33,341 bases of DNA from an uncultured Acidobacteriota bacterium (GCA_963713825.1 CAVQNG010000013.1:1-33341); one strand, 5' to 3'; shown: positions 172 through 26,290, counted from the stretch's first letter. The notes: generated by a model from the letters alone, not told the origin. Numbers and translations: made by a program.

Positions 172-198
172 TGGCAGAAGTGTGTCCGTGTAGGTACT
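172..198 (+). promoter_or_regulatory. Degenerate copy of the putative ECF promoter (TGGCAG-N17-TACT)
   Basis: Shares the spacer TGTGTCCGTGTAG and downstream TACT.GGTAGA.GGGAATC with the copies at 8644 and 11877; the -35 is diverged. Confidence 0.5.
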
Positions 199-217
199 GG
201 GTAGAAGGGAATCTGTG

Positions 218-308
218 GCGCCTCGACAAAGGCACACCTGGCAAAGCCCAAAGCCGCAAAGCCACGGGTCCTCGTTACTCGCTGACAAGACCGCCGGGCT
301 GCCGAAGG
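218..308 (+). ncRNA. c-di-GMP-I (GEMM) riboswitch, copy 1, P2 stem degenerate
   Basis: GACAAAGGCACACC...GCCGCAAAGCCACGGGTCCT...AAGACCGCCGGGCTGCCGAAGG matches the GEMM layout; the 3' strand of P2 reads CCCAAAG instead of CCCAGGG. Confidence 0.7.
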
Positions 309-353
309 CAAACGGGAAGCCGTATCTTTAGACGGAAAGGGTAGGAAACGAGA

Positions 354-536
354 ATGAAGCGCTTTTCACTTGTTGTGGTGCTTGCTGTAATCGTACTACC
401 CGGGCTAGCCGGAGCAGAAACCTTCGACGACTGGAGCGCCTTTCAGGCAGCGGTCGCAGGCGATCTGACGCTCATCGATTTCGAGGGATTTGCTGCTGGC
501 GAAGGGCCCGAGGGAGCCCGGAGTCTCAACCTCTAG
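354..536 (+). CDS. Short secreted protein, probably a truncated cargo gene
   Basis: Sec signal peptide (MKRFSLVVVLAVIVLPGLAGA), purine-rich RBS region, downstream of a riboswitch; only 60 aa and stops 23 bp before the convergent CHAT gene. Confidence 0.55.
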   Translation: MKRFSLVVVLAVIVLPGLAGAETFDDWSAFQAAVAGDLTLIDFEGFAAGEGPEGARSLNL

Positions 537-559
537 TTGGTACAGGTTCCGGGGGCGGG

Positions 560-3500
560 TCACCGCCAATCACCCACTGCCACAAATCCGGCCCAGAAAA
601 AGGGGTGAGTGCTCAAGCCTGCCTCTCGGCGACGCTGTAGTAGTTCGAGGCTTGCCAGGTGCACAGCGTCGCTCGTCGTTCGACTGTCGATGAAACGGCT
701 CTGGTAGAGGAGCTTCATCCACTCTCGTGTCGAATTGTCCTCGACCCGCCACAAGCTCATAATGAGGCTGTCGACGCCAGCCATTTGAAACGCCCGGCGA
801 AGCCCAAATACACCCTCTCCCGCCCACACTTCCCCCACTCCGGTTGCGCAGGCCGACAGCACTGCCCACTCCACTCCAGTGAGGTTGAGCGCCGCAATCT
901 CTTCAGCCGTGAGAATTCCGTCCTCTTCGCCCGGAGCCGCTGCGTCTCTGTGATTGGCTCCAGCCAGGGCCAAACCAGCCAAAAGGAGCGGATTCTCACC
1001 GACCTTCGACACACCACGGCCTGGAGCCTCCTCGGTACCCAGCGCCGAGCGGCACTCGCCTCCAAGGAAGAAGGCATGACTCGCGACGTGGATCACCCGT
1101 CTACCTCCTGACAGAGCCTTGAATGCTGCTTCGCTGGCCGCCGCTTCACTCAGGATTAGCACATGCTCGCTGGTAGGACGCCGGCCGGCACCTCGAGCGA
1201 TTGCGTCTTGCCATAGCTCGGCGATCTCGCGCAACTCCGGCCCTGTTGCCGGCAGCTCAGCGAACTCCAGGTCCTCGAAGCTTTCGCAGGCCGAGAGCGG
1301 CCCACGGTATGAGCCACCGGCCAGGTCATCGACGTTTGATGCCTCAGCCACGATGAGATCCGTTTGGGGTGCGAGGGCAGAGAAGAGACTAGTGTCGTTG
1401 AATGCCGGATCGCCAAGAGCCAACAAATCGTTGCCGTGCTCTGCCTTTGCGAAGCCAATGAGATCTCGTTCCGCCGACAGATAGTGGAGAATCGGGCCAC
1501 CTTCAATCAGATAGCCGCCATCCTCAGAAGGAAGCGCCGAGTAGTTGATGAGGCTTAGGGCGCCGTCAGGTACGACGAACAGAACCTCGAGGCCTTCTAC
1601 CTGCGACGCGACAGGATCCCAGACACGAGTCCGCAGTGATGCGGCGACGGACCGAAACTGTTTCTCTGCCTGTGCGGTGGCCCAAGCAGGAGTTCTTGAG
1701 ACGCCAGAGACCTGCCGCCGGAATTGCTGTACGAGGTGGTCGATATCGAGGGCTCTTCCCAGCGGGACGAGCGCTGGCTCTCCACCTCCGCTCCTGAGGA
1801 CGAAGGCTACATACCAAGCCTCGCCGGGACCCTCTTCTGTACCGCTCTCGCCGCCGAAAGCGGTGCGATGAAAGCGTGCCACACTGAGAAGTCCGGTCCC
1901 GGGGGGCAGATTCCCCTTCACCTCTTCCAAGCCAGAATCCTTGACCCTGAGTCGAGATCGAAATGAAGGACTGCTCTCCGCCAGTTTCCTCTCTGCCAGA
2001 TCTCGTTCATTACGAGCTTGGCGCAAGAGGGCTCGGTGTATTTCTGCCTGCTCTGGACCTTGAGACCCTTGCACTGCGAGGAAGGCCAATCTGTTGCGAG
2101 CCTCAGCCAGCTCCATCGCTTGAAGAGATACTTCAGAATTCGGATGTACCGAAGCCCATTTGTGGCGCTCCGCCATCTCATCCAGCACTATCGCCCTCGA
2201 GCGAATCAATGAATCGAAGGCCTTCTCTACTGGTCCAGGTCTCGCATCAGCAAGAAGTATCGAGAGGATGAGACTGAGCCCCGACTCGTGTGTCGCCGCG
2301 TAGTGCAGACCATGCCTCTCTGCAAGACCTGCGAGATTCTGGCGCAACTGCTCACGCAGAATCCTGTCGGCATGCAGAGCCGACCCCAGTGCCTCGTCGA
2401 GATTGCCGGTTCTCGCCAGACATTGGGCTACCTTCAGTTGACCCGCCAGGGCCCCGGGATTGTCCGGGCCCCACTCGTTGACGAGAATGGACACGGCTCT
2501 CCGATACAGAGGGAGAGCCTTCTGGAAGTCCCCCAGCTTCGCGCTCAGGTCCGCCAGCGAGTTCAAGTTAGACGCGACGCGATCCTTCTTGCTCCCAAAC
2601 GCCCTCTCATCGATCTCTAGAGCTCGCTCGAACGCCTTTCTGGCCCCTGAGAAATCCCCAAGCTCCATTAGGATCTCACCATGTTTTCTCAACCCTACAG
2701 CTACCTCCGGATGATTCTCATCCCAGAAGTTCTGCCGGATCGCAAGAGCGCGTTCCGTCAAGTCTTTCGCAGTGTTCAGGTCTCCTTCTTGAATCGAAAT
2801 TTCGGCGAGACCCAGTAGCGGATGGGTCATGGACTCGTGCTCAGCACCTAGGCTCTTGTCAATTATTGCCGCCGAACGTTCATAGGAACGTCGAGCCTGC
2901 TCGTACTCGCCCAGGTCTACTAGGAGGCTCGCCTGGTCATTGAGCGTCCACGCCAGCCATGGATGTTCCGTACCGAAGTGCTCCTCGATTACCGCTATCG
3001 CTCGCTCGCGGTACTGCCGAGAAGAACCAAGATCTCTCCGCGCCGCCAGCAGTGTGGCGTACATAGCGAAGGTGGCGGCGGAATTGGGTGACGGGTGGCG
3101 CTCGTGAATCGCAATGGCGCGCCGGTAGGTGTCCTCCGCCAGGTTCGGTTCGCCCATAAACCACAGTAGAAGAGCCAGATTATTCAACGAGTCAGCCAGC
3201 TTAGGGTGCTCGGGACCCAACACCTCTTCCCTGATGGCGACGGCCTGCTCCATCAAGGGTCGCGCCTCCTGGTACATGCCCAACTCCCACTTCAAGTAGC
3301 CCAAGCTGTGATAGCTCTGTGCTAGGTCTGGATGCCTGGGTTCCAGTTCCGCTTCTCGAATCGCGAGAGCCCGTTCGTAGAGAGCTTCGGCTTCTGCCTG
3401 ATCGCCGGAGGCGGCGAGGACGTTAGCAAGGCCATGAAGGGGAACCGTGACATCGAGGCTATCCGGACCGGATGCGATTTCGAAGATCTCAATTGCGTCT

Positions 3501-4093
3501 TCGTACTGTCTTTTCGCCTCTTCCAAACGGTTCGTCTGTCGATAGAGTCCCCCCAGATACTGGTGAATCAGCCCAACCCGTCGATCTGCGGATCCCACTG
3601 CTTCCTGGTAGATCCCGAGTGCACGCAGTTCAAGAGTCTCCACCGCCGAGAAGTCGCCTCTCTTTTCAAGAACTTTGGCCTTCTCAATCAGACTGTCGGC
3701 CACCAGCGGGTGGTTTGCCCCGAGGTCTTGCTCGCGAATTCGCAGAGCGCGATCCGCCAGCTCCAGGGGTTCGGCCTGACCGGCCTTTCCTCCGCGCCAG
3801 AGGGCTTCGACCAGAAGATCGAGAACCTCCGCTGTTTCTAGGGAGTCGCGCCCGTTATCGGCTTCGGTTCTGGTGAGCAATTCGCGAGCAGTGAGTTCCG
3901 CCGTCGCGTAGTCACCGGCTGCGATCAGACCTTGAACAGCCTTTGTGCTGGTCCTCTCTTGCAGCGAGAGGTTGCGGTCCTCGAGCCTGACCACATCTTG
4001 GACGGCCTCGGCGGGTGGAATCAACGCTGGCGCTGTGACGCTTCCTAGCAGAAGCGCACAGGCACGAGCTACTTTACGACTACACATGACCAT
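560..4093 (-). CDS. TPR-repeat CHAT-domain (caspase-like, clan CD) protease with predicted signal peptide
   Basis: About 12 kinesin-light-chain-type TPRs (LGPEHPKLADSLNNLA); CHAT motifs VVPDGAL, IHVASHAF (His), VLSACATG (Cys), SLWRVED, HPFFWAGF. RBS GGAGGT abuts ATG 4093, so the true start may be ATG 4087. Confidence 0.95.
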   Translation of the reverse strand: MVMCSRKVARACALLLGSVTAPALIPPAEAVQDVVRLEDRNLSLQERTSTKAVQGLIAAGDYATAELTARELLTRTEADNGRDSLETAEVLDLLVEALWRGGKAGQAEPLELADRALRIREQDLGANHPLVADSLIEKAKVLEKRGDFSAVETLELRALGIYQEAVGSADRRVGLIHQYLGGLYRQTNRLEEAKRQYEDAIEIFEIASGPDSLDVTVPLHGLANVLAASGDQAEAEALYERALAIREAELEPRHPDLAQSYHSLGYLKWELGMYQEARPLMEQAVAIREEVLGPEHPKLADSLNNLALLLWFMGEPNLAEDTYRRAIAIHERHPSPNSAATFAMYATLLAARRDLGSSRQYRERAIAVIEEHFGTEHPWLAWTLNDQASLLVDLGEYEQARRSYERSAAIIDKSLGAEHESMTHPLLGLAEISIQEGDLNTAKDLTERALAIRQNFWDENHPEVAVGLRKHGEILMELGDFSGARKAFERALEIDERAFGSKKDRVASNLNSLADLSAKLGDFQKALPLYRRAVSILVNEWGPDNPGALAGQLKVAQCLARTGNLDEALGSALHADRILREQLRQNLAGLAERHGLHYAATHESGLSLILSILLADARPGPVEKAFDSLIRSRAIVLDEMAERHKWASVHPNSEVSLQAMELAEARNRLAFLAVQGSQGPEQAEIHRALLRQARNERDLAERKLAESSPSFRSRLRVKDSGLEEVKGNLPPGTGLLSVARFHRTAFGGESGTEEGPGEAWYVAFVLRSGGGEPALVPLGRALDIDHLVQQFRRQVSGVSRTPAWATAQAEKQFRSVAASLRTRVWDPVASQVEGLEVLFVVPDGALSLINYSALPSEDGGYLIEGGPILHYLSAERDLIGFAKAEHGNDLLALGDPAFNDTSLFSALAPQTDLIVAEASNVDDLAGGSYRGPLSACESFEDLEFAELPATGPELREIAELWQDAIARGAGRRPTSEHVLILSEAAASEAAFKALSGGRRVIHVASHAFFLGGECRSALGTEEAPGRGVSKVGENPLLLAGLALAGANHRDAAAPGEEDGILTAEEIAALNLTGVEWAVLSACATGVGEVWAGEGVFGLRRAFQMAGVDSLIMSLWRVEDNSTREWMKLLYQSRFIDSRTTSDAVHLASLELLQRRREAGLSTHPFFWAGFVAVGDWR

Positions 4094-4141: not shown

Positions 4142-4873
4142 TCAGCGCGGAAGCCGCTCCAGCAGGGCGAGGGCTTCGGACTCCATCTCGCCCGCGAGGT
4201 CCACCACTGCTTCCAGCTCATCTCTGGCCGCCTGAACATGACCTGCTCGCAGAAGGGCCTTGGCCAGATAGAGGCGTGCTCTCTCGAGGTACGGTGTGGG
4301 GGCCAACGCGACAACGCGCCTGAAACTCTCGATCGCCGGCTCGGTCGCCCCTGTGTGGAGATAGCAGACCCCTAGAAAGAAGTGAGCTGTGGCGTCTGCG
4401 GGATCCTGTTGGGAGGCTGCCTCGAGTCCCGGAAGCGCACGCGAGTAGTTCCCGGCGGAATAGAGTTCCATGGCTTGTTGAAAGTGTGCCTCCGCCTGCC
4501 CCCCCGAACTTCTTAGCAGCGGGACCTCGTAAGGAGGTGGCTCAAACCAAGCCAGCTCTGCCAACTCGGTCCGGCCTAGACGCTCACCTTCCGATCGGGT
4601 CATCCAGAGAGTGACTCCCAACCCGACGATGAGCACCGCAGCAATCGCCATCTTCACCCAACGCTGAGCAATGAAGGTCACGAGCACGCCGCCTTCTGTC
4701 GAATCGGCAGATTCGATGACGGAATCTCGCAAGGCGACCAGCTGCTCTAACGCCGTCTGGCACTCTCGACAGTCGACCAAGTGGTCTTCAAAGGTCTCGG
4801 ACTCGCCCTCGGAGAGATTGCCAACAAAGTAGCTCTCCACCAACTCGTCATTCAGCTCTTGTAGACACGCCAT
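4142..4873 (-). CDS. Zinc-finger (zf-HC2/ZAS) anti-sigma factor with one TM helix and C-terminal TPRs
   Basis: FEDHLVDCRECQ (HxxxCxxC), TM WVKMAIAAVLIVGLGVTLWM, then TPR helices; directly downstream of the ECF gene. Start ATG 4873 or GTG 4885 (ORF track gives 4891). Confidence 0.9.
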   Translation of the reverse strand: MACLQELNDELVESYFVGNLSEGESETFEDHLVDCRECQTALEQLVALRDSVIESADSTEGGVLVTFIAQRWVKMAIAAVLIVGLGVTLWMTRSEGERLGRTELAELAWFEPPPYEVPLLRSSGGQAEAHFQQAMELYSAGNYSRALPGLEAASQQDPADATAHFFLGVCYLHTGATEPAIESFRRVVALAPTPYLERARLYLAKALLRAGHVQAARDELEAVVDLAGEMESEALALLERLPR

Positions 4874-4887
4874 CGGCCTGATCACTA

Positions 4888-5469
4888 TCAATAGTGCCCG
4901 TGCTTGCTAGTTTGTGACAGATCATCGAGATTCTTACGGGCTCTGCGCAGGGCACGGAGCTTTCGCTGGCGGGCCGCGGCCGGGCGAATACCGACGCGAT
5001 CTGCGATCTCCGAGAGGCTCAAGTCCTCAACCAGCCACAAGCGCAAGATCTCCTGGTCCCGGGGTTCTAATCGCGCCAGGCTGATTCTGGCTAGTTCCAG
5101 CAGCTCACCTCGTCCGCAATCCGATTCCGGGTCACCTTCGTCTCCAGTTGACTGGAAGGACTTCAGCCGATCGATGCGCTGCTCCCCGCGAAAGTGCGCT
5201 CGGATGATGTTTCGGATGGTCCCACCGACAAAGGCCGGCAACCTGTCCTCATCTCGAAGTCTGCCCTGGCGAAGGGCCTGAAGAACCTGAAGCATGGCTT
5301 CTTGCGCCAGGTCTTCAGCATCGACGACAGAATCCACTCGCACGAGTGCTATCAGATAGGCCGACCTCCGAAATCGGGAGACCAGCTCTTCCTCAGCCGC
5401 TCGATCGCCGCCGCGAATTCGGCCAGCGAGTGAGGACTCAACCGTGTCCGCTGTCCCAGCACTAGGCAC
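4888..5469 (-). CDS. ECF-type sigma-70 factor (sigma 1)
   Basis: 193 aa; region 2 (DAEDLAQEAMLQVL...FVGGTIRN) and region 4 HTH (LEPRDQEILRLWLVEDLSLSEIADRVGI). Confidence 0.93.
   Translation of the reverse strand: MPSAGTADTVESSLAGRIRGGDRAAEEELVSRFRRSAYLIALVRVDSVVDAEDLAQEAMLQVLQALRQGRLRDEDRLPAFVGGTIRNIIRAHFRGEQRIDRLKSFQSTGDEGDPESDCGRGELLELARISLARLEPRDQEILRLWLVEDLSLSEIADRVGIRPAAARQRKLRALRRARKNLDDLSQTSKHGHY
4893..4919 (-). promoter_or_regulatory. Putative ECF promoter inside the 3' end of sigma 1, facing the anti-sigma gene
   Basis: Minus strand TGTCAC-AAACTAGCAAGCACGGG(17)-CACT: same boxes and spacing as the leader copies, with an unrelated spacer. Confidence 0.65.
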
Positions 5470-5533: not shown

Positions 5534-5560
5534 TGTCACACATGCTCCTCTTGCGACACC
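5534..5560 (+). promoter_or_regulatory. Putative ECF promoter TGTCAC-N17-CACC
   Basis: Same boxes and 17-nt spacing with a different spacer, upstream of the truncated riboswitch. Confidence 0.6.
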
Positions 5561-5576
5561 TTCTAACTGAGAAGAA

Positions 5577-5608
5577 GCGCCTCGACAAAGGCACACCTGG
5601 GAAAACCT
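5577..5608 (+). ncRNA. Truncated c-di-GMP-I riboswitch (5' part only)
   Basis: GCGCCTCGACAAAGGCACACCTGGGAAAACC is identical to the 11923 and 13859 copies, then jumps directly to the RBS AAAGGAG. Confidence 0.7.
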
Positions 5609-5622
5609 GAAAGGAGACCGCA

Positions 5623-7041
5623 ATGGGACGAACCTCGAGACGAGTCAGCCTGGTGGCAATGTTGATCGTGCTGTTCGGCACTGTGGCCAGCAGCGCCAAC
5701 CTGATCAGCTATACCACGTGGTCAGCCAACCGTAATCGAGTCATGGTCATGGACGACACAGGGGCCAATCCTCTCGAAATCTACCTGGGCGTAAAGTTCT
5801 CACCTTATGGGCTGAATCACACAATCTCTCCCCAACGGTCAGACGGAACCTGGGTCGCCTTTCGGGACACAGACATCGATATGGGTACGGGATCTGCGCT
5901 CTATAAGGTCAAGGCCGACGGGTCGGGCTTCACCAAGGTGCTCTGCAGCAGCTACGACGGTGAGAGCGGAGTCCCTCACAGCTCCATATCTGGCTCTCGG
6001 TGGTCACCTGACGACCGCTGGATTGCTGTTCAAACGTACGAGGGCATTGCGCTGGTTTCGGTCGACTTCGAAGTGGGCTTGGGTGCCGTCGACGAGGCCT
6101 GCGCAGCACCGCTTCAGTTCATCTACCCGGACCCCGATTGGGACCCAGTCTGGGTCCTGGAGTCACGTGTGGCGTGGAACCTCGACGGGACCCAAATGGC
6201 ATTCATTGAGATCCTCAATTTCAGAGATCCGGACACCGAGCAGATTCGAATTGTCGTTCTCGAACGTCAGGAGATCGGTTGGAGGCGAGTGCGCGAGGTG
6301 TCGACCGATGTCGAGCTCTTCGGCAAGTGGCCGTGGTCTCTCGATTGGCAGCGCGGCGGGGATCTCCTGGTGATCCACACCCTTGAAGGCAGCGGACCGC
6401 AAGGAGTGTTCTGGATCAACTGGATCGATATCACCAACGGAGAGTGGGGATATGTCACTGCAGGCACAAGCCCGAGTTGGTCTCCGGACAACAACCATCT
6501 GCTCATCGTTGACGAAAGGGGAACGATCATCAAGTGGCTCTACCCGGAGGGGCCTGGAGAGGTCTTGGGCTCGGGAGAGTCCCCTGAGTGGCAGAGAGAC
6601 GAGCTGTCTTTCACCTGCGAGATTGATGCAGACTGCGACGACGGCAATCTGTGCACCGATGACGAGTGCGTCTCTGGCAATTGCAGCAACTCTCCCAACT
6701 TCCTGGTGTGTGACGATGGCAACGAGTGCACGGACTTCGATGGCTGTAATGAGGGTCTCTGTGTTGGACAGCCCATCTCCGACGGTACCCCTTGCGACGC
6801 TGGGTATTGCTGCGGTGTGATGTGTGTCGAGTTGGCTTGTGACATCGACAGCGACTGCGACGATGAAGATGCCTGTACGATCGACACTTGCGTCTTCGAT
6901 GCGGTCAATCCCTGCGCAACGCATTGCGAGTACGCACCCGATCCCGCTTGCCCAAGCTGCTTGCCGAAGGGCACACCGTGCGACCCGGAGATACCTTGCT
7001 GTTCGGGGATGTGTCACCCTGTCAAGGGAACGTGCAAGTAG
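5623..7041 (+). CDS. Secreted TolB/PD40-like beta-propeller protein with Cys/Asp-rich C-terminal repeats
   Basis: Signal peptide; WSPD motifs; CDDGNxCTxDxC repeats; ends CCSGMCHPVKGTCK; RBS AAAGGAG. Confidence 0.85.
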   Translation: MGRTSRRVSLVAMLIVLFGTVASSANLISYTTWSANRNRVMVMDDTGANPLEIYLGVKFSPYGLNHTISPQRSDGTWVAFRDTDIDMGTGSALYKVKADGSGFTKVLCSSYDGESGVPHSSISGSRWSPDDRWIAVQTYEGIALVSVDFEVGLGAVDEACAAPLQFIYPDPDWDPVWVLESRVAWNLDGTQMAFIEILNFRDPDTEQIRIVVLERQEIGWRRVREVSTDVELFGKWPWSLDWQRGGDLLVIHTLEGSGPQGVFWINWIDITNGEWGYVTAGTSPSWSPDNNHLLIVDERGTIIKWLYPEGPGEVLGSGESPEWQRDELSFTCEIDADCDDGNLCTDDECVSGNCSNSPNFLVCDDGNECTDFDGCNEGLCVGQPISDGTPCDAGYCCGVMCVELACDIDSDCDDEDACTIDTCVFDAVNPCATHCEYAPDPACPSCLPKGTPCDPEIPCCSGMCHPVKGTCK

Positions 7042-7063: not shown

Positions 7064-7093
7064 GGGCCGGGCCTCGCGCCCGGCCCTTCTTCT
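7064..7093 (+). terminator. Intrinsic terminator
   Basis: GGGCCGGGC-ctcgc-GCCCGGCCC hairpin followed by TTCTTCT. Confidence 0.75.
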
Positions 7094-7136
7094 CTCGCAC
7101 TTGAAATCTCAGTTGGGCAGGAGTAGCGTCTGACTT

Positions 7137-7222
7137 ACCTCGACAACGGTAAACCTGGTCAAAGCCAGGGACACAAAGCTACGGGTCTTACCTCATCGAG
7201 AAGATCGCCGGGCTGCCGAAGG
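7137..7222 (+). ncRNA. c-di-GMP-I riboswitch
   Basis: CCTCGACAACGGTAAACCTGGTCAAAGCCAGGGACACAAAGCTACGGGTCTT...AAGATCGCCGGGCTGCCGAAGG; C-G to U-A compensatory change at the base of P2. Confidence 0.85.
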
Positions 7223-7268: not shown

Positions 7269-8620
7269 ATGCGCTCTTGGATTGCTTGTCTTGCTCTCCT
7301 CTTCCAGGTCGTATCTGTGGCACAGGCACAGCAGACAATTCGCGTCAGTGTGGCCAGCGACGGCACCGAGGCAAATGGTGGAAGTGCGGATCCAGCTCTC
7401 AGTCCAAACTGCCGATTCGTGGCCTTCCATTCCACCGCCTCCAACCTTGTTGAGGGTGATACCAACGGAATGCTGGACGTTTTTGTCCACGACAGATGGC
7501 TTGGAGAGACAACCAGAGTCAGCATTGCCGGCAACGGCGCTCAAGGAAACAGCGATTCGTCCCATCCGGCGCTTAGCGATGACGGCCGCCTCGTGGCGTT
7601 TTCTTCCGCATCCGATAATCTGGTCCCGCTCGATACGAACGGAGAACGTGACGTCTTTGTCCACGACCGCACGACGGGAGAGACAACCCGGGTCAGTGTG
7701 GCGAGCGACGGCAGTCAAGCAGTAGGTGGGTGGAGCCGCCCCGACCTCGACATCAGTGCTGACGGCCAAATCGTCGCTTTTCATTCCTGGGCCTCGAATC
7801 TGGTCCCGCTCGATACGAACGGAAAAGCGGATATCTTTGTCCACGACCGCACGACGGGAGAGACAACCCGGGTCAGTGTGGCAAGCGACGGTGCTCAAGC
7901 AAACGGCGGGTCCACCTTTCCAGCACTGAGTGCTGACGGCCGCCTCGTGGCGTTTTCTTCCCACGCATCGAATCTGGTCCCGCTCGATACGAACGCATGC
8001 GGAGGATATCTTCGTCCACGACCGTTTGACGGGCCAGACAACTCGGGTCAATGTCGCCAGCGACGGCAGTCAAGCAGTAGGTCGGAGGAGCTTTGCACCT
8101 GACATCAATCACGACGGCCGCTTCGTGGCGTTTGTTTCAGATGCACAGAACCTAGCACCAAACGACGGGTACGACGGGGCCGATTCGTTTGTCCACGACC
8201 GACAAACGGGCGAGACCATTCTTGTCAGCGTAGATAGTCAGGGAGTAGGAGGAAACGATTGGTCCTACAACGTATGGATCAGTGCAAACGGCCGGGTCGT
8301 CGTTTTCACGGTCTGCTGCTGACAACCTCGTTTCAGACGACACGAATCTCGTAGAGGATATTTTTGCTCATGACTGGGGGACAGGAAAGACCGTCCGGGT
8401 AAGCCTCGCTGATAACGGGGACGAGGCGAATGACCTTAGTCTTCGTTTGAAGGCGGCGATATGTAGTAATGGCAGAGCCTTCGGATTCTCATCAGTCGCC
8501 TCGAATCTAGTTCAGGGAGATTTGAACGCATTTCCCGACGTGTTCATCCGTGACTTTGGTCTCTTCGCCGACGGCTTCGAGTCCGGCGACACCTCGGCCT
8601 GGTCGGATTCTGTGCCATAG
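7269..8620 (+). pseudogene. Secreted beta-propeller repeat protein (TolB-like, 'DTNG.xDVFVHDR' repeats) with FADGFESGDTSAWS tail; two frameshifts
   Basis: Signal peptide and RBS GGAGG; the repeat continues across ORFs 7269-8102, 7930-8322 and 8282-8620; one extra G near 8001 and one near 8310 would explain the shifts. Confidence 0.8.
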
Positions 8621-8643: not shown

Positions 8644-8670
8644 TGTCACGTTTGTGTCCGTGCAGCTACT
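8644..8670 (+). promoter_or_regulatory. Putative ECF promoter TGTCAC-N17-TACT
   Basis: TGTCACGTTTGTGTCCGTGCAGCTACT, repeated leader motif. Confidence 0.65.
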
Positions 8671-8688: not shown

Positions 8689-8801
8689 GCGCCACGCAAA
8701 GGCACACCTGGGAAAACCCAGGGCCGCAAAGCCACGGTTCCTCGTCTCCTTCGCGACGGAGTCCCGCCACGAAGGACCCAAGACCGCCGGGCTGCCGAAG
8801 G
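8689..8801 (+). ncRNA. c-di-GMP-I riboswitch with an extra hairpin inserted in P3
   Basis: AAAGGCACACCTGGGAAAACCCAGGGCCGCAAAGCCACGG...AAGACCGCCGGGCTGCCGAAGG. Confidence 0.85.
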
Positions 8802-8846: not shown

Positions 8847-10028
8847 ATGAAGGATCTGCTTTGGGCAACGCCGATCGTTCTGGTCTTGCTTATCACAGTC
8901 CCTGCCCCCACTAACGCAGGCGAGCCAACTCTTGACATCATCTTCGCAAACGAGGGCCAGAGGAACAGAGTCTGCCTTGGTGACGGCGTCGGGGGCTTCA
9001 CCTGTAGCGACGTTAGCGCCAATACAGACATGTCGTGGGGCGTGGCGCTGGGCTACGTGGATGGCGATCTCATACTCGATGCCGTTCTTGCGAATCGCCT
9101 TCAAAGGAACCGGATCTGCCTCGGAGATGGTGAGGGTGGCTTCAATTGCAGCGACGTAAATACTGACACGCTTTGGTCGCAGCTCGTGGCGCTCGGCTTT
9201 GTGGACGGTGATCAGATACTGGATGCCGTCTTCGCAAATAATGGTGAAAACCGCCTGTGCCTCGGCGACGGCGTAGGAGGTTTCACCTGTAGCGACGTCA
9301 GCACCGACACGAACCATTCGTACTCTGTGGCGCTGGGCTACGTAAATGGCGACCAGAAGCTAGACGCCGTCTTCTCGAATAACGGTAGGAACCGCGTCTG
9401 TCTGGGTGACGGTGTCGGGGGCTTTACCTGCAGCGACATCAGCACCAATACACAGCATTCCCAGGGCGTAGCACTCGGCTATGTGGACGGCGATCAAACG
9501 ATTGACGCTGTCTTCTCGAATCTCGACTTTGCCCAGCCGAACCGCGTCTGTCTGGGTGACGGCGCTGGGGGCTTTACCTGCAGCGACGTGAGCACCGATA
9601 CGAATGGCACAAGGTATTTGGCGCTTGGCCACGTTGACGACGATCAGACGCTTGATGTGGTCTTCGCAAATGGCAGCGATGCTCCAGACCGGGTCTGCCT
9701 CGGCGATGGTGGCGGGAGGCTTCTCATGTAGCGACATTAGTACTGACACGTTTCGCGGGGAAACGGTGGCTCTCGGCTTTATCGACGGGGACCAGGCGCT
9801 CGACGCCGTCTTCGGCAATGCTGGTCGGAACCGCCTTTGCCTGGGTGAGGTGTCGGGGGCTTTACCTGCAGCGATATCAGCTCCGACGAGAATGGCTCGT
9901 ATGGCATGTCACTCGGCTTTATTGACGACAACCCAAGAATCTTCGCCGACGGCTTCGAGTCGGGCGATACCTCGGCCTGGTCGGAGTGCGGTGCAGTGCC
10001 ACCCGCTCAGCTTGTCCTCCAGAGCTAG
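8847..10028 (+). pseudogene. Secreted FG-GAP/VCBS-like repeat protein with IFADGFESGDTSAWS tail; compensating frameshifts
   Basis: Signal peptide after RBS GGAG; about 7 repeats of VALGYVDGDxxLDAVFAN..NRVCLGDGxGGFTC; +1 shift near 9716 and -1 shift near 9848 restore the original frame; tail at 9939-9983. Confidence 0.8.
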
Positions 10029-10059: not shown

Positions 10060-10085
10060 TGTCACGTTTGTGTCCATTCAGTACT
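10060..10085 (+). promoter_or_regulatory. Putative ECF promoter TGTCAC-N16-TACT
   Basis: TGTCACGTTTGTGTCCATTCAGTACT. Confidence 0.6.
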
Positions 10086-10212: not shown

Positions 10213-10249
10213 GTGAATGGTGGCCCTGTCTGTGGAAAAGGAGTTTGGT

Positions 10250-11627: not shown

Positions 11628-11657
11628 GGGCCGGGCCTTGCGTCCGGTCTTTTCTTT
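11628..11657 (+). terminator. Intrinsic terminator
   Basis: GGGCCGGGC-cttgc-GTCCGGTCT followed by TTTCTTT; related to the 7064 hairpin. Confidence 0.7.
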
Positions 11658-11876: not shown

Positions 11877-11903
11877 TGTCACGTTTGTGTCCGTGTAGCC
11901 ACT
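11877..11903 (+). promoter_or_regulatory. Putative ECF promoter TGTCAC-N17-CACT
   Basis: TGTCACGTTTGTGTCCGTGTAGCCACT. Confidence 0.7.
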
Positions 11904-13812: not shown

Positions 13813-13839
13813 TGTCACGTTTGTGTCGGTGTAGCCACT
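13813..13839 (+). promoter_or_regulatory. Putative ECF promoter TGTCAC-N17-CACT
   Basis: TGTCACGTTTGTGTCGGTGTAGCCACT, one mismatch to the 11877 copy. Confidence 0.7.
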
Positions 13840-17522: not shown

Positions 17523-17551
17523 GTTATCGGTCGGATGGTCGGTGTCTTCTG

Positions 17552-17580
17552 AGGCCGGGCTTCGTGCCCGGCCTTTTCTT
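17552..17580 (+). terminator. Intrinsic terminator
   Basis: AGGCCGGGC-ttcgt-GCCCGGCCT followed by TTTCTT. Confidence 0.8.
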
Positions 17581-17732
17581 GTGGTTCCACTGGATGCAGG
17601 CGACCCTGCTACCCATAGCAGAGGTCTCCGACGCATAGCCTTCTGGCTATGTCTCCTACCCGTCAAGAGGGGTTCCCAACCACCTCTTCGGGTATGTCGG
17701 TCTTGTCAGATCTCTGCTAACACAGCTGTACA

Positions 17733-17871: not shown

Positions 17872-18714
17872 ATGGGTGTGACCTCGAGGCTTATCGAGTG
17901 GGTTCCTGGTCTTCCAGCGAAGGAAATGGAAGAGGCCTGGGATCGCTTCCTGAGCGAATACGCCACCCTCATCCTCCAGGTCGTCCACCTCTTCGAGCGG
18001 GACCCGGACCGGGTCGATGATTGCTTCCTTTTCGTCTGCGAGCACCTGAAGAGAGATCGCCTCAGGAGGCTCCGGCGTTTCAAGGCTGATGGCACGGCGT
18101 CGTTTCCAACATGGCTCCGCGCCGTGGTGCGCAACCTCTGCCTCGACTGGCGCCGCCAGCGATTCGGTCGCCCTCGGATCTTCCGCTCGATTGCCCGCCT
18201 GCCCGAAGTGGATCAGGAGGTCTTCCGCTGCATCTACTTTCGAAAGCTGAGTGAAAACGAGACCCTGCATACGGTCAGGGCGCTCCACCCGGCCCTGGAT
18301 CGCGAAGAGCTCGCTGCGAGCCTTGTGCGCATTCGCGCCAGCCTCAGCCCGCACCAGTCGTGGCTGTTGGCCTCGCGCAATCCCTACGTGGAATCGCTGT
18401 CTCGGAACGCGGATGTCACCAAGGGAGACGCTCGGGAAGCGGAACTGCCCGATCCCGATCCGGATCCCGAGACCGAGGCATCGGGTCGAGAGTTTCTCCG
18501 TGCCCTTCGCCGGGCCATGGACGGCCTGCCATCAAAAGAAAGGTTGCTGCTGCGGCTTCGCTTCGAGCAGGAGCTGACCCTGGAGGAGATCGCGGAGCTG
18601 ATGCAGCTGGGCAGTGCGGTCAAGGCACAAAGATTCCTACAACAGGTGCTTTCGAAGACGAGAGAGCAACTCCTGATGCAGGGAATCGAGTCCTTGTCCG
18701 TGAAAGAGAAGTAG
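17872..18714 (+). CDS. ECF-type sigma-70 factor with a long insertion between regions 2 and 4 (sigma 2)
   Basis: AWDRFLSEY, SFPTWLRAVVRNLCLDWRR (region 2); LPSKERLLLRLRFEQELTLEEIAELM (region 4); 280 aa. Confidence 0.88.
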   Translation: MGVTSRLIEWVPGLPAKEMEEAWDRFLSEYATLILQVVHLFERDPDRVDDCFLFVCEHLKRDRLRRLRRFKADGTASFPTWLRAVVRNLCLDWRRQRFGRPRIFRSIARLPEVDQEVFRCIYFRKLSENETLHTVRALHPALDREELAASLVRIRASLSPHQSWLLASRNPYVESLSRNADVTKGDAREAELPDPDPDPETEASGREFLRALRRAMDGLPSKERLLLRLRFEQELTLEEIAELMQLGSAVKAQRFLQQVLSKTREQLLMQGIESLSVKEK

Positions 18715-18740: not shown

Positions 18741-19499
18741 ATGAGCGAAATGATCGACGAATCGGACATCACCAGGCAGATTCCCCTCGTTGCGGGCTCG
18801 GGTAGTCGAAGAGGCGCACGCTGTCCGACACCGGGGCAGCTGGCGGCCTATGCCGACACACGACTGGATGCGACCGCGCGGGCAAGAGTGGAGGAGCACC
18901 TCGCCGATTGCACCTACTGCCTGGGGCAGGTCGGGTTTCTGGTTCGCGAGTCGCGAGAGACGGAGGCAACACCGCTACCTTCGCGCCTGATCGAGACGGC
19001 TCGCGAGAGGCCCACTCGTCGGTTGAGTCTCGTGCCGGTGCCGGCGCTGGCGGCGCTGGCGGCCACAGCCCTGCTGTTGGTCGTCGGATTCGTCTGGCAG
19101 CCGGACCGTGCCCTGGCTCCCTTCAGCCCGGCTGGTCCTGGAGCGGAGCGCTCTGGTCGAGCTTCCAGGAGAGTTCCGATGGATCGCACCGTCCGCAACG
19201 GAGGGTTGGCTGCGGTGGCGCCCCGGATCCTGCTGCCGATCGATGAGGAGGTCGTCCGTCAGCTCCCCATGGAGATCCGCTGGTCGAGCTCGCCCGGAGC
19301 CCTGCAGTACTCTGTCCAGGTGCTGAGCCTCGCCGGTGATTTGGTCTGGGAGGGCTCGAGCGCCGGGGAAGCGACCGTGGTTCCGTCGGACGTCGCACTC
19401 GAGCCAGGACAGAGGTACTACGTCTGGGTGGAAGCGCGGCTTCCCTCTGGCGACACCTCAAAGTCCGATGCCGTTGCCTTTCGCGTAGCTCCCGATTGA
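18741..19499 (+). CDS. zf-HC2 anti-sigma factor with one TM helix and a C-terminal Ig-like beta domain
   Basis: CPTPGQLAAYAD..VEEHLADCTYC; TM LAALAATALLLVVGFVW; IRWSSSPGALQYSVQV..LEPGQRYYVWVEA; start re-assigned to ATG 18741. Confidence 0.88.
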   Translation: MSEMIDESDITRQIPLVAGSGSRRGARCPTPGQLAAYADTRLDATARARVEEHLADCTYCLGQVGFLVRESRETEATPLPSRLIETARERPTRRLSLVPVPALAALAATALLLVVGFVWQPDRALAPFSPAGPGAERSGRASRRVPMDRTVRNGGLAAVAPRILLPIDEEVVRQLPMEIRWSSSPGALQYSVQVLSLAGDLVWEGSSAGEATVVPSDVALEPGQRYYVWVEARLPSGDTSKSDAVAFRVAPD

Positions 19500-22469: not shown

Positions 22470-22567
22470 GGTCAGGAATGAATTTCCTCTGGCCCGTGTC
22501 CGTGCAAGAAAAGCAGGGAATGGAACTTCCATACAGAGAGGAACGCTGATCCGAAGGAGGTCACGCC

Positions 22568-24451
22568 ATGACACGGAGAGACTCGACACTCTACTTGTTC
22601 CCCAAGGCTCTACTTCTTCTGATCGGTGTGCTACTGCTGAGCTCGCCATCCTTCGCTCAGGATCCGATCCCGACCGCGGCCGACCCCTCTTCGGCCGAGC
22701 AGGAGACCTTCGATTTGGAGGTCACGGTTACCGGTGACAACTTCAGCAAGGACTCGGAAGTCCGATTCCTGCGCACCGGAACTGAAGACCCAGGGGGCAT
22801 CCATGTCAAGAACGTCAAGGCCCAGGGTCCGAAGACCCTCAAGGTCCTCATTGACGTTTCAGCGGAAGCGACGGTTGACGATTTCGACATCGAGGTCATG
22901 AGCCGCGGCCGCACCGGCAAGGGCACCGAGCTGTTCCGTGTCCTCGAGAAGAGCACCGGATCGGACTCGACTCCACCGGGCGAGATTTTCGACCTGAGGG
23001 TGGTCGATTCGACCTACTGGAGCGTCACGCTGGAGTGGACGATGCCCGCCGACGATGGCTTCGATGCAAGCAGTGGACCGGTCCAGACCTGCTATCTCAA
23101 GTGCGCACCGCCTGGTGAGCCGCTCGTGAGCTGCCGTTGTGCCGGCAGCTTCCTGGAGGATCCCTACTCCTGGGGGAATCCGTGGTCGACCCAGGTTTGT
23201 CAAGCCTACCGGGATGCCGAGTTCCCCCTGCTCCAGGACACGGAGTATGTCTTCGCGGTCGCCTGTAGGGACGAGAACATGTTCAATGTCAGTGAGTACG
23301 TCGAGGTGTCGGGCGGAAGAACGAGCTCATTCAGCGAAGTGCAGAGCACCGAGTGGAGGAGCCAGGAGGTACCCGCGGCTCTCGACGTCAGTCTCGGTCA
23401 CGCGTTCGACCTCGACGGCGACCCGCTCATCGTCGGGATCTTCAACGGCAGCACTCGGATTGTGAGGGGTACCTGGAACGGCTCTTCGTGGGCCTGGAGT
23501 CCTCCAGAGGATCTCGCCACCTCTTCCGGAGCTTTCGCGATGGATCCTTGGGGTCAGCCTGCGTTCGCTGGGGTGGAGACCGTCGGCCGCCAGCAGGAAG
23601 GCGTTATCTACACTTATTTCGACGGCTCTGGCTGGACTGCGGAGCTCGTCTCCTCCCTGGGGCGAAAGGTCCGGCCAGCAGCACTGGCCATTGCGTTCGA
23701 CCCGACCTCCGGGGAGCCGGTGATCGCTTATAGCACGGTGGGCGATCGCAGTGGCGATCAGCTCTATCTGGCCAGGCGAACTTCGAGTGACAGCTGGGAA
23801 ATCGAGGCAATCGTTGCGGGCGCGTTTCGCGACATTTCACTCGCTTTCAGCGCCGCAGGCGAGCCGGGCGTGGCCTATGGTTGGTATATCGACGAGTACT
23901 CACAGCCGGATATCATCGATGTTGCGGTAAAGCGCACGGATGGCTGGATCCACGAAACGGTGACGCCAAGCAATACCTACAACTGGGGATATTTCCAGTT
24001 GGAAAGTGGGCCGGGGTCTGACGACTTGTGGCTCGCCTCCGATTCCGGTCTCTGCGAGCGTCACTTGCCCGGGGATTGGGTCTGCGAAAGGCGAGAGTTC
24101 AACAATTGGGGCGCGCCCTGGTTTGCGGTCGATAGCGAAGGACAGGCTCTCGCTGCGACTCGGGGTGCGGCACCCAGGGAACCGGGCTTGACGCTCCTCA
24201 GCCGCGACCCGGTGAGCTTGGAGTGGTCGGTCGAGTATGTCGATCATTATCAGCAGTACGCTTGGCCGAGCGGGCCTCCAGCCTGGGATCAACTGCACCT
24301 TGGCCTGACTTCCAGTGCTTTGCCCGCAGGAACTCCGTTCCTTCCGAACTCGCCGACCCTGTCGTGGGCGTGGAATGTGTGCGCTGAATCGTATTGCGAG
24401 TCCAACTTCGCGGAATACCACCTCTACTTCGCCTGGAAGGAGACTCCCTAG
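22568..24451 (+). CDS. Secreted protein with Ig/IPT-like, fibronectin-III and beta-propeller-like regions
   Basis: Signal peptide after AGGAGG; VTVTGDNF; DSTPPGEIFDL..SVTLEWTMPADDG (Fn3); EPVIAYS..LYLARR. Confidence 0.8.
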   Translation: MTRRDSTLYLFPKALLLLIGVLLLSSPSFAQDPIPTAADPSSAEQETFDLEVTVTGDNFSKDSEVRFLRTGTEDPGGIHVKNVKAQGPKTLKVLIDVSAEATVDDFDIEVMSRGRTGKGTELFRVLEKSTGSDSTPPGEIFDLRVVDSTYWSVTLEWTMPADDGFDASSGPVQTCYLKCAPPGEPLVSCRCAGSFLEDPYSWGNPWSTQVCQAYRDAEFPLLQDTEYVFAVACRDENMFNVSEYVEVSGGRTSSFSEVQSTEWRSQEVPAALDVSLGHAFDLDGDPLIVGIFNGSTRIVRGTWNGSSWAWSPPEDLATSSGAFAMDPWGQPAFAGVETVGRQQEGVIYTYFDGSGWTAELVSSLGRKVRPAALAIAFDPTSGEPVIAYSTVGDRSGDQLYLARRTSSDSWEIEAIVAGAFRDISLAFSAAGEPGVAYGWYIDEYSQPDIIDVAVKRTDGWIHETVTPSNTYNWGYFQLESGPGSDDLWLASDSGLCERHLPGDWVCERREFNNWGAPWFAVDSEGQALAATRGAAPREPGLTLLSRDPVSLEWSVEYVDHYQQYAWPSGPPAWDQLHLGLTSSALPAGTPFLPNSPTLSWAWNVCAESYCESNFAEYHLYFAWKETP

Positions 24452-24513
24452 ACCTCCTTCATCGGCGACGCGGCAGGCAGCGGTACCAGGGTAAATCCTT
24501 CGAACAGTCACCG

Positions 24514-24545: not shown

Positions 24546-24672
24546 CCGAAGGTCTCACTCGCGGGAGACCTCCGAAGCCTGCAGGTCCAAACGCCCTCGA
24601 CCGAAGGTCTGATGATCCCGGCCACTCACCAGGTGATCGAAGCCTGATTGGCGAGTGGGTGAAGTCGAAGGC

Positions 24673-24734
24673 GTGTCCGTGTAGTCAGGTAGGAGATGCC
24701 CATGATGGGTTTGTTTCCGCCTCGACGAGGGCAC
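24673..24734 (+). other. Eroded remnant of the promoter/riboswitch leader
   Basis: GTGTCCGTGTAG (24673) and CGCCTCGACGAGGGCACA (24718) match parts of the repeated leader. Confidence 0.5.
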
Positions 24735-24835
24735 AAATGGTTGGCCGAAGAGTTCCACCTACGGCGCTACAGGTCGAAACTTTGTTGCCGCTGACGTGGG
24801 GATCTCGGGTCCAGCAAGACGAAAGGAGAGTTGTG

Positions 24836-26236
24836 ATGAGAGTCGCCTCGGGAAGTGCGTTTTGGTGTGTAGTGCTGAGCCTCGTTTGCACCGCCGCCTG
24901 GGCGGCGGAGCCTGCGGTCGTCTTTGTCGACGACGCGCGGGTAGGAGCCAAATCCATCATGGTGATGGATGTCGATGGTGCCAATCGCACGGAAGTCTTT
25001 CGAACCGCAAAGCGATATGGAGACGGAGCCGGTGGCCCATGGCTCAGTCCTTCGATCTCACCGGATGGCCAGTGGGTCGCCTACGTCTACGAGGAAGGTG
25101 ACGAGGGCCCGGGCTGGGCCGTCTGGAAGACGACTAGTGCGGGAAGCCCTCCGCAGATGCTGCTCTGCAGCAGTGGACCAGACGGTGTTGTGGTCCTGGA
25201 GACACCCCAGTGGTCGCCGGATGGAACCGAGATCGCCGCCGTGAGAAGAGACTTTCTCAATGGTTTTCAATCCGTCGTCATCATCCCGGCGGATGGGCTT
25301 CAGTGTGGCATCGAGCAGCCGGAGGTCGTGTACTCCTCTGCCGGGGGTGGCTTGAGCCCGGGTGTCACCTGGAGTCCCGACGGTGCAAATCTCGCCGTCC
25401 TGGAATCAGACGACAACGGTGTCGACCTTCTGACGGTCGTACCGCGTTGGGGCGGAGGAGCGCTCACCTATCAGGTCGTCTGGCCGGCGGAATTCCTCGA
25501 CGGGCTGCTGTACAGGGAGCCCCATGCCCTGGACTGGCAGCGGGCCGGCAGCCTGGTCTTCGCTCTGGACACCTATTCGGAGAGCGCCGCCGAGCGGGTC
25601 GATACGGTGTGGTTGCTCCAGGTGATGGGAACCACCGCAATCGCCACGCCGATCGGCGAAGGGCAGTCGCCGACGTGGGCCCCCGACGATTCCCAGCTTC
25701 TCTTTGCTGGTCCCCAGGGTCTCACGAGAGTCACGTTCCCTGGGGGAGGAACCGAGTTTCTCGGCTCGGGTAGCGATCCCGACTGGAAGCGTGGGGCGCT
25801 GGCTGTCTGCGGGGACGGGAGCTGCGAAGGCGCTGAAGGCCCGTGCAATTGCCCGGCTGACTGCGATGATCCACCCTCCACCGAGACGTCATGCACGGAC
25901 TTTGCCGACAACGACTGCGACACGTTCGTCGACTGCGACGACACCGACTGCTCGGTCGACCCGGTCTGTGCGGTGCCCTACTGTGGCGACGGGTTCTGTG
26001 ACGAGGACGAGAGCTCATGCACTTGTGCCGAAGATTGTGGAGCGCCGCTCACGGTAGAGTCCGACTGCAGTGACGGTCTGGACAACGACTGCGACGATGC
26101 GATCGACTGTGATGACCTGGACTGCAGCGATGACGAGAGCTGCGCTTCCGGCGGCGGCAATCCCGGAGATCCCTGCACCAGCGGTGCCGATTGTCTCTCC
26201 GGCCTCTGCCATCCGGTGAAGCACACCTGCAAATAG
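24836..26236 (+). CDS. Secreted TolB/PD40-like protein with Cys/Asp-rich repeats; paralog of 5623-7041
   Basis: ATG 24836 after AAAGGAG; signal peptide; ISPDGQWVAY, WSPDG, LDWQR; CGDGxC and DNDCD repeats; ends CLSGLCHPVKHTCK. Confidence 0.85.
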   Translation: MRVASGSAFWCVVLSLVCTAAWAAEPAVVFVDDARVGAKSIMVMDVDGANRTEVFRTAKRYGDGAGGPWLSPSISPDGQWVAYVYEEGDEGPGWAVWKTTSAGSPPQMLLCSSGPDGVVVLETPQWSPDGTEIAAVRRDFLNGFQSVVIIPADGLQCGIEQPEVVYSSAGGGLSPGVTWSPDGANLAVLESDDNGVDLLTVVPRWGGGALTYQVVWPAEFLDGLLYREPHALDWQRAGSLVFALDTYSESAAERVDTVWLLQVMGTTAIATPIGEGQSPTWAPDDSQLLFAGPQGLTRVTFPGGGTEFLGSGSDPDWKRGALAVCGDGSCEGAEGPCNCPADCDDPPSTETSCTDFADNDCDTFVDCDDTDCSVDPVCAVPYCGDGFCDEDESSCTCAEDCGAPLTVESDCSDGLDNDCDDAIDCDDLDCSDDESCASGGGNPGDPCTSGADCLSGLCHPVKHTCK

Positions 26237-26261
26237 TCGCGCCGGGTCAGCGGTAGCCGAT

Positions 26262-26290
26262 GGGCCGGGCCTCGCGCCCGGCCTATTATT
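26262..26290 (+). terminator. Terminator-like hairpin, possibly bidirectional
   Basis: GGGCCGGGCCTCGCGCCCGGCC is identical to the 7064 hairpin and lies between convergent genes. Confidence 0.7.

Follow-up and report, generated by a model that had tools for sequence, protein, structure and literature searches.

A c-di-GMP-I riboswitch array flanked by ECF sigma, anti-sigma and TPR-CHAT genes in an uncultured Acidobacteriota bacterium

Introduction

Riboswitches of the cyclic di-guanosine monophosphate class I (c-di-GMP-I), exemplified by Vc2 of Vibrio cholerae, and sigma factors of the extracytoplasmic function (ECF) type meet in the stretch of DNA described here. This stretch, denoted the window, comprises 33,341 nucleotides (nt) and represents one whole contig (GCA_963713825.1, CAVQNG010000013.1:1-33341; C13) of the 5.4-Mb, 38-contig, metagenome-derived genome of an uncultured Acidobacteriota bacterium (G000). 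It carries an array of c-di-GMP-I aptamers, most of them in front of genes for putatively secreted proteins, and on each flank a triad of genes for an ECF sigma factor, a zinc-binding anti-sigma factor, and a putatively exported protein with tetratricopeptide repeats (TPR) and a CHAT domain. The reading that we hold to be somewhat better supported than its negation is that of a lineage-specific regulatory island, in which cassettes with a defined promoter (class A) would be fired by the sigma factor family of the left triad (type 1), and c-di-GMP would gate their translation. Each part is already known; the real novelty lies in their combination, which is without description in the literature searched.

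The statements on the related sigma systems follow excerpts of the cited reports. In Clostridioides difficile, a regulon of multiple c-di-GMP-I riboswitches controls surface and virulence genes (PMC6200980, in excerpt). DdvS of Myxococcus xanthus is an ECF sigma factor held by DdvA, a single-pass anti-sigma factor with a zinc motif and a periplasmic TPR-CHAT part containing a His-Cys dyad (PMC11506125). A first cut made by the CHAT part before intramembrane proteolysis is proposed for DdvA, with signal and cleavage still unshown according to the excerpt, and DdvA-like fusions are reported there only from Myxococcota and one Comamonas (PMC11506125). In the type III-E craspase, the TPR-CHAT protein Csx29 cuts Csx30, by which the inhibition of a sigma factor is proposed to be relieved (PMC10028731). 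ECF54 sigma factors are accompanied by CHAT-domain proteins in a conserved neighbourhood, and proteolytic control is proposed (PMC8999054, PMC7826278). The general logic is that of RseA/DegS/RseP, where an outer protease cuts the membrane-bound anti-sigma factor first and an intramembrane cut follows (PMC10028731, PMC11506125). A literature search on c-di-GMP riboswitches combined with ECF sigma factors returned nothing relevant, in agreement with the initial annotation of the window, which knew of no described system combining these parts.

c-di-GMP-I aptamers of the window

A cmscan of the window yielded seven aptamers at or above the Rfam gathering score (45.5-68.1 bits), all on the plus strand:

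221-306, plus strand: c-di-GMP-I aptamer 0, the weakest, 45.5 bits; first hairpin with several non-standard pairs
7139-7221, plus strand: c-di-GMP-I aptamer 1, 68.0 bits
8691-8799, plus strand: c-di-GMP-I aptamer 2, 50.9 bits
10106-10210, plus strand: c-di-GMP-I aptamer 3, 48.6 bits
11927-12023, plus strand: c-di-GMP-I aptamer 4, 63.0 bits
13862-13970, plus strand: c-di-GMP-I aptamer 5, 48.8 bits
17732-17817, plus strand: c-di-GMP-I aptamer 6, 68.1 bits; start codon of sigma 2 54 nt downstream

Four aptamers are best described by RF01051, whose cut-off of 35 bits they pass with 45.5-50.9 bits, and three by RF03167 (63-68.1 bits; cut-off 59); in a search of the own genome with RF01051 alone, all seven score above 35 bits. 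A permissive Rfam scan of the window added only four weak matches resembling small RNAs, three of which overlie terminators. Among 20 aligned aptamers (the seven of the window and 13 from four sister genomes), 21 columns are invariant, including AA.GG, C.CAAA, and GCC.G, and the two-hairpin architecture is present together with the conserved core nucleotides. By these characters, the window leaders are genuine c-di-GMP-I aptamers, as the initial annotation had recognised. A GGC-variant identity was considered for the three aptamers best matched by RF03167 and rejected. The distinguishing position, defined as the one where the Rfam consensus lines visibly differ (..GCAAAG.. vs ..GCGAAG..) and which we take to be a ligand contact, is canonical: all seven aptamers read ..GCAAAGCC.. 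(CAAAG), and none carries the G of the GGC-variant consensus. Since all seven read CAAAG, they are treated as ordinary c-di-GMP-I aptamers.

The genome encodes 13 GGDEF-domain genes, and c-di-GMP is therefore plausibly made in the host. The genome-wide Rfam search proposed with the initial annotation resulted in 31 aptamers above the cut-off, 17 of them on four contigs with arrays and triads and 14 elsewhere with other leaders. In the window, open reading frames (ORFs) with signal-peptide-like N-termini follow six of the seven aptamers (judged by eye), and the sigma 2 gene follows the seventh. The distance between aptamer and start codon amounts to 35-55 nt, and as no terminator lies in between, control is more likely to take place at translation start.

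Two sigma/anti-sigma/TPR-CHAT triads

The two complete triads named in the initial annotation were both found, one on each flank of the cassettes:

4888-5469, minus strand: ECF sigma 1, type-1 family, 193 amino acids (aa); region 2 at 7e-09, region 4 at 4e-08, TIGR02937 at 1.9e-20
4142-4891, minus strand: anti-sigma 1; HxxxCxxC, one hydrophobic span (by eye), outer TPR domain; likely true start at ATG 4873
560-4093, minus strand: TPR-CHAT protein 1 (CHAT 1), 1177 aa; signal-peptide-like N-terminus (by eye); H1006 and C1082 in His/Cys motifs
17872-18714, plus strand: ECF-type sigma 2, 280 aa; TIGR02937 at 4e-22, region 2 weak at 6e-04; about 115 aa between regions 2 and 4
about 18741-19499, plus strand: anti-sigma 2; HxxxCxxC, one hydrophobic span (by eye), outer domain of about 130 aa
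19527-22469, plus strand: TPR-CHAT protein 2 (CHAT 2), 980 aa; signal-peptide-like N-terminus (by eye); H841 and C886

Both sigma factors show the ECF composition, with sigma-70 regions 2 and 4 only. Both anti-sigma factors display the features of class I zinc-binding anti-sigma factors (ZAS), an N-terminal HxxxCxxC followed by a single membrane span (spans called by eye); the motif reads HLVDCRECQ in anti-sigma 1 (zf-HC2 E 0.0065; NF052375 5.9e-07) and HLADCTYC in anti-sigma 2 (zf-HC2 3.5e-05). The CHAT domain is full-length in CHAT 1 (PF12770, E 1.5e-57, profile positions 3-289 of 289) as well as in CHAT 2 (E 5.9e-63, positions 3-288 of 289). Compared with Csx29, the CHAT domain of CHAT 2 gives an E-value of 4e-06, with H841 and C886 aligned to the His and Cys of LTILCHGE and LGACET, presumably the catalytic residues of Csx29. 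When the full-length protein was compared with solved structures, only TPR proteins were returned; the Csx29 match required the CHAT domain alone. H1006 and C1082 of CHAT 1 sit in motifs like those of CHAT 2 and form a predicted His-Cys dyad.

Six type-1 triads are present in the genome (C13, C15, C3, C7, C8, and C28), with about 40% identity among them. A public genome collection was scanned with an alignment of 13 members of the type-1 sigma family, and 45 loci, nearly all from Acidobacteriota, were analysed. The order sigma - anti-sigma - TPR-CHAT is conserved in most of these loci, and the cargo genes vary. The type-1 sigma family is spread through Acidobacteriota, its gene usually being followed by those for a zinc anti-sigma factor and a TPR-CHAT protein.

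A promoter motif tied to the type-1 sigma family

The leaders fall into three classes. Class A is defined by TGTCAC-N17-(C/T)ACT, class B by a terminator followed by TTGAAA-N17-TAGCGT, and class C by palindromes followed by TGTCGG-N17-TAAC. The class-A motif precedes four of the seven window aptamers, about 25 nt ahead of them, and related sites lie in the left triad:

8644-8670, plus strand: class-A promoter TGTCAC-N17-TACT
10060-10085, plus strand: class-A promoter variant TGTCAC-N16-TACT, spacer 16
11877-11903, plus strand: class-A promoter TGTCAC-N17-CACT
13813-13839, plus strand: class-A promoter TGTCAC-N17-CACT
4893-4919, minus strand: internal promoter-like GTCAC-N17-CACT within the final codons of the sigma 1 gene; anti-sigma 1 and CHAT 1 follow
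5534-5560, plus strand: divergent promoter-like TGTCAC-N17-CACC, facing ORF 5623

The exact sequence TGTCAC-N17-CACT occurs three times in the window, vs 0.02 expected, and none of 100 shuffles reaches three; two matches (11877 and 13813) precede aptamers, and the third (4893-4919, minus strand) is located at the junction of sigma 1 and anti-sigma 1. Looser patterns were discarded as uninformative, both in the window (up to two mismatches, 33 found vs 25.9 expected) and genome-wide (225 matches vs about 178 expected). In the genome-wide promoter search, likewise proposed with the initial annotation, the strict motif was found at 17 sites in 5.4 Mb. Class-A leaders account for eight of them and positions divergent to type-1 sigma genes for five; another is close to a triad, and three are elsewhere.

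Two fixed positions in the sigma loci carry the motif. The first is divergent to the sigma gene: a secreted-protein gene lies divergent to each of the six type-1 triads of the genome, with an intergenic (T/G)GTCAC-N17-xxCT. A divergent motif is also present in six of nine loci of three sister genomes and, in the wider phylum, in 14 of 42 usable loci vs none of 42 in the direction of sigma (background 0.0096 per 320 nt). The second is the sigma/anti-sigma junction: all six own copies have GTCAC-N17 there, as do 35 of 41 other loci, and when yAC is also required at -10, 27 of 50 loci have a site, the background being 0.0095 per 150 nt. GTCAC stands in one reading frame at 25 of the 27 sites, where TCA spells Ser, a codon used for only 13% of the Ser residues in these genes; the ribosome-binding site and start of anti-sigma follow 20-35 nt downstream. 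The fixed frame, the rare TCA codon, and the recurrence at the junction point to a promoter written into coding sequence. The type-1 sigma genes themselves mostly show a TAGAAT-like -10 (by eye).

GTCAC-N17-yACT is thus very probably the cognate promoter of the type-1 sigma family; its two fixed positions in the sigma loci show it to be more than a by-product of copied leaders. Because this comparison ties the motif to type-1 sigma, a two-input design is the best reading for four cassettes of the window and ten of the genome, at which the two signals, sigma and c-di-GMP, probably have to coincide. The initial annotation had proposed such a gate for the array in general; the other cassettes use other promoters.

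Two aptamer leaders beside type-1 triads in a related genome (G033; C3:4471 and C5:33272, L041 and L052) carry GTAAC-N17-TCTT in place of GTCAC-N17-yACT, which may serve a different sigma paralogue as promoter.

The role of the TPR-CHAT proteins

By analogy with DdvA, the exported TPR-CHAT protein is proposed to act on the outer part of the anti-sigma factor in a protease-triggered step. A structure model of CHAT 2 (residues 150-980) with the outer domain of anti-sigma 2 gave a binding score of 0.68, vs 0.00 for the best of three controls. Of 78 solved complexes, 51 reach the mark applied to such models, as against two of 108 mismatched pairs. For the present model, the runs share at least 20% of their contacts and the partner pLDDT is 67 or higher; folding was done without alignments. 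The score expresses model confidence, to which memory of the solved DdvA structure (the fused form) may add. The modelled contact is placed on the helices that immediately precede the CHAT domain, with R846 near H841 included, and would leave the long outer linker of anti-sigma 2 free. It is predicted to involve residues 684-711 of CHAT 2 and residues 320-328 and 352-373 of the anti-sigma 2 ORF. The model supports a contact between the outer domain of anti-sigma 2 and CHAT 2.

A different role would be that of periplasmic proteases or scaffolds which are controlled by sigma and process or anchor the cargo rather than regulating the anti-sigma factor. Since they follow the internal sigma-type promoter, the CHAT genes are plausible regulon members; moreover, the cargo consists of secreted repeat proteins, and cleavage is not shown even for DdvA in the excerpted source (PMC11506125). 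These points are opposed by the conserved sigma - anti-sigma - CHAT order alongside variable cargo, by the modelled contact, and by DdvA itself, in which both parts are joined in one polypeptide (PMC11506125). We regard a role restricted to cargo as unlikely and retain the anti-sigma factor as the proposed target.

The likeness to DdvS/DdvA also raises the idea of phage-sensing switches, with the island as a defence or surface-remodelling response to phage. This reading was rejected as highly improbable: a PADLOC scan of 19 window proteins gave generic TPR matches only and no defence family, and the neighbours of the triads encode secreted repeat proteins.

The sigma 2 triad behind an aptamer

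The leader of the right triad belongs to class C:

17635-17720, plus strand: sigma 2 leader; palindrome ATAGCC-N4-GGCTAT at 17635-17650, CTACCC..GGGT repeats, TGTCGG-N17-TAAC

An aptamer stands directly before the sigma gene in all four type-2 triads of the genome (C13, C14, C15, and C16). Homologues of sigma 2 were detected in seven of 60 relatives, three of the same genus and four more distant. Two of the three sister species have an aptamer above the cut-off in the same place; the leader of the third (G002, L003 631-723) contains a weak aptamer-like element of 30.6 bits with the variant G, which either is in decay or represents a variant with a changed ligand preference. No aptamer precedes the homologue in the four more distant relatives. 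In a consensus fold of five sigma 2 leaders, the stretch after the aptamer pairs with the region of the ribosome-binding site and AUG, and a conserved hairpin shows compensatory changes; the predicted fold hints at an 'on' switch. Control of the array had been ascribed to both triads in the initial annotation. The link to the motif makes this probable for the sigma 1 family, and the second triad is to be seen as a riboswitch target, not as a demonstrated controller.

Cassettes and cargo

The remaining features of the array are as follows:

172-208, plus strand: decayed class-A promoter; GTGTCCGTGTAG box kept at 182, GTCAC -35 gone
354-536, plus strand: remnant cargo ORF, 60 aa, cut off; signal-peptide-like start (by eye)
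5571-5624, plus strand: aptamer remnant, 5' half only (own model R1, E 0.0055), reaching the ribosome-binding site of ORF 5623
5623-7041, plus strand: secreted propeller-like protein with Cys-rich tail; homologues divergent to all six type-1 triads
7064-7086, plus strand: terminator hairpin of the related family, consensus GGGCCGGGCC..GCCCGGCC plus T-rich stretch
7101-7129, plus strand: housekeeping-like promoter TTGAAA-N17-TAGCGT (class B), called by eye and absent from the list of a consensus promoter scan
7269-8620, plus strand: secreted PD40-repeat protein, in three frames in this assembly
8847-9731, plus strand: secreted FG-GAP-like repeat protein
10217-11599, plus strand: secreted protein with GGEFQVNTYTT repeats
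11628-11650, plus strand: terminator of the related family, after ORF 10217-11599
12062-13774, plus strand: secreted protein with PKD and FIMAH matches
14021-16776, plus strand: cargo, a 162-aa signal-peptide ORF followed by FG-GAP_2 and thrombospondin-3 repeats; repeated frame shifts
17551-17575, plus strand: terminator of the related family
22490-24451, plus strand: leader remnant with GTGTCCGTG box at 22496 and no aptamer; 627-aa secreted ORF (22568) of no known family
24673 to about 24760, plus strand: leader remnant with aptamer fragments
24836-26236, plus strand: secreted ORF, paralogue of 5623
about 26262-26284, plus strand: terminator of the related family

The initial annotation described most cassettes as composed of promoter, aptamer, and signal-peptide ORF, often with a related terminator. 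The composition holds for four of the seven window aptamers but for only 11 of the 31 in the genome, and the terminators were located at four sites (7064, 11628, 17551, and about 26262). The three window leaders without an intact class-A motif are the decayed copy at 221, the one with the housekeeping-like promoter at 7139, and the third type at 17732.

In many aptamer leaders without GTCAC, the palindrome yACCC-N4-GGGTG stands some 35-45 nt ahead of a -10-like TAxxxx, often with a second palindrome, ATAGCY-N4-RGCTAT, just upstream. Leaders with these palindromes were seen in the window (17635-17700), on five further contigs of the genome (C12, C30, C5, C3, and C1), and in the genomes G001, G002, G004, G008, and G033 (L030-L059). 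ATAGCY-N4-RGCTAT has four sites in the genome, three of them at most 170 nt upstream of aptamers. The palindromes look like operator sites of regulators, which would add another type of transcriptional input to riboswitch leaders.

The paralogues 5623-7041 and 24836-26236, one per triad, each combine a propeller-like part with a Cys-rich tail ending in CHPVK(G/H)TCK, and their leaders hold aptamer remnants only. Two unrelated cargo proteins share a C-terminal motif, DGFESGDTSAWS..V (8560-8620 and 11540-11599), which runs on into the next class-A leader and suggests that the duplicated unit spans the tail of one gene through the following leader. Several frame changes are found in the cargo at 7269-8620 (three ORF pieces) and at 14583-16776 (repeated out-of-frame stretches); these genes are either pseudogenes or affected by assembly indel errors in repeats. 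Beyond the array (26396-32930), the window encodes an ORF with a HExxH-like motif, a beta/gamma-crystallin repeat protein, an FG-GAP/ASPIC (CRTAC1-like) protein, and a TPR protein.

Distribution of the linkage and its bearing on the proposed island

The window layout recurs on contig C15 (20 kb) of the same genome, where five aptamer cassettes accompany a type-1 and a type-2 triad; the triad genes there are frameshifted. At the start of C14 and of C16, a class-A cassette precedes a type-2 triad. Leaders form an end of several contigs, so the assembly is probably interrupted by the repeats.

A number of observations weigh against the favoured reading of a sigma-fired, c-di-GMP-gated island, and four of them equally favour a plain c-di-GMP riboswitch regulon of surface proteins that grew by tandem duplication of units of leader and gene, with the motif hitch-hiking and the triads as unrelated neighbours. 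First, the class-A leaders are near-identical over about 75 nt, so that their shared motif counts as one evolutionary event, not ten. Second, other sequences lie upstream of 20 of the 31 genome aptamers and three of the seven in the window. Third, aptamers within 7 kb of the sigma gene occur at only one of the 45 related loci of other genomes, leaving 44 without. Fourth, the exact promoter-aptamer pattern, present eight times in this genome, is found in none of 400 other Acidobacteriota sampled. A plain regulon is nevertheless rather improbable in our view: in several acidobacterial classes, type-1 sigma loci have the same -35 and -10 blocks, 17 nt apart, at two fixed positions, the similarity among the leader subfamilies begins at the GTCAC block and vanishes upstream, and all ten intact class-A leaders are on contigs that also hold a triad.

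The other contrary points concern single elements of the island. On four other contigs, the type-1 triad is without an aptamer, either on the whole contig or at any distance up to 18 kb. Pairing of the ribosome-binding site with the aptamer beat shuffles in only two of seven leaders, clearly at 8691 and at 0.03 at 7139; as the other five were no different from shuffles, it was dropped as a clue to the direction of the switch. The P1 modelled for the sigma 2 leader is poor, with two non-standard pairs out of three, which weakens the hint at an 'on' switch. No shared motif was seen upstream of the distant sigma 2 homologues, and targets of sigma 2 were not found. Frameshifts in two cargo genes and the reduction of three leaders to remnants indicate decay in part of the array. 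The calls of signal peptides, membrane spans, and housekeeping-type promoters were made by eye, and in a draft assembly of 38 contigs strain mixing could inflate copy numbers.

The single related locus with nearby aptamers belongs to another genus of the family (G033); it has three aptamers on the strand opposite to sigma, as in the window, and the same genome holds two aptamer leaders with the motif elsewhere. Among 17 aptamer matches of two sister species without type-1 sigma (none at E 1e-18), no leader has the motif. Of the co-occurrence across Acidobacteriota that the initial annotation had proposed to examine, that of motif and triads is supported by these loci; the linkage of triads and aptamers is lineage-specific, and within the genome 14 of the 31 aptamers lie outside the contigs with arrays and triads. 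As far as these genomes tell, the triad family is old and widespread, and its joining to c-di-GMP aptamers is recent, local, and spread by duplication; this follows from the wide distribution of the former against the narrow linkage of the latter.

Proposed mechanism and significance

The favoured reading can be formulated as a sequence of steps. A housekeeping-type promoter would supply sigma 1, which anti-sigma 1 would hold at the membrane. The exported TPR-CHAT protein would dock on the outer domain of the anti-sigma factor, and an envelope signal would elicit a first cut, as proposed for DdvA. A type-1 sigma factor would then transcribe the class-A cassettes, whose leader RNA would allow translation only at the right level of c-di-GMP, yielding a two-input gate. 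The internal promoter would drive anti-sigma and CHAT in negative feedback, and the divergent site would drive a target. The second module, the sigma 2 triad, would be made only when c-di-GMP permits and would thus constitute a further layer. It is a tentative extension, to which we give clearly less credence, that c-di-GMP twice licenses a trans-envelope sigma cascade gated by a protease, by deciding whether the sigma 2 module is made and by gating each surface protein via a portable leader.

If this applies, ECF promoter and aptamer would form a plug-in AND-gate cassette, a compact natural two-input gate that is copied before unrelated genes and builds a surface repertoire by duplication. 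A riboswitch ahead of an operon for ECF sigma, anti-sigma, and protease would tie c-di-GMP directly to trans-envelope signalling. The triad may be regarded as a split counterpart of DdvA that is widespread in Acidobacteriota and offers many natural variants as well as a predicted contact surface for the study of CHAT-linked anti-sigma switching.

Comparison with known systems

With known c-di-GMP-I systems (GEMM-I, RF01051; clan CL00126), the window shares the aptamer fold and core, the many copies per genome, and mostly secreted or surface targets. It differs from them in the fusion of ten leaders with an ECF-type promoter and in one aptamer class that heads a sigma/anti-sigma/protease operon. 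Moreover, the expression platforms are without terminator, and three aptamers are best matched by the GGC model yet have the canonical A.

The sigma systems are compared on the basis of the excerpts given above. In contrast to DdvA, anti-sigma and TPR-CHAT are encoded by separate genes in both triads and the related loci; the neighbours are secreted repeat proteins, whereas DdvS/DdvA is found beside CBASS or CRISPR; and the type-1 triad family is widespread in Acidobacteriota. As both the defining fusion and the defence island are lacking, the triads are not members of the DdvA type, although by analogy a triad may work like DdvA. The likeness to the craspase consists in a TPR-CHAT protease proposed to free an ECF-type sigma factor from its inhibitor. 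The craspase is cytoplasmic, RNA-guided, and CRISPR-linked, whereas the proteins described here are putatively exported, have no Cas genes nearby, and are paired with a classical zinc anti-sigma factor. ECF54 stems from Actinobacteria and is described, in the excerpt consulted, without an anti-sigma factor (PMC8999054); on that description, the zinc anti-sigma factor sets the triads apart. In its logic, the proposed cascade resembles RseA/DegS/RseP, with the difference that the protease of the first cut would be a caspase-like CHAT protein instead of a DegS-type serine protease.

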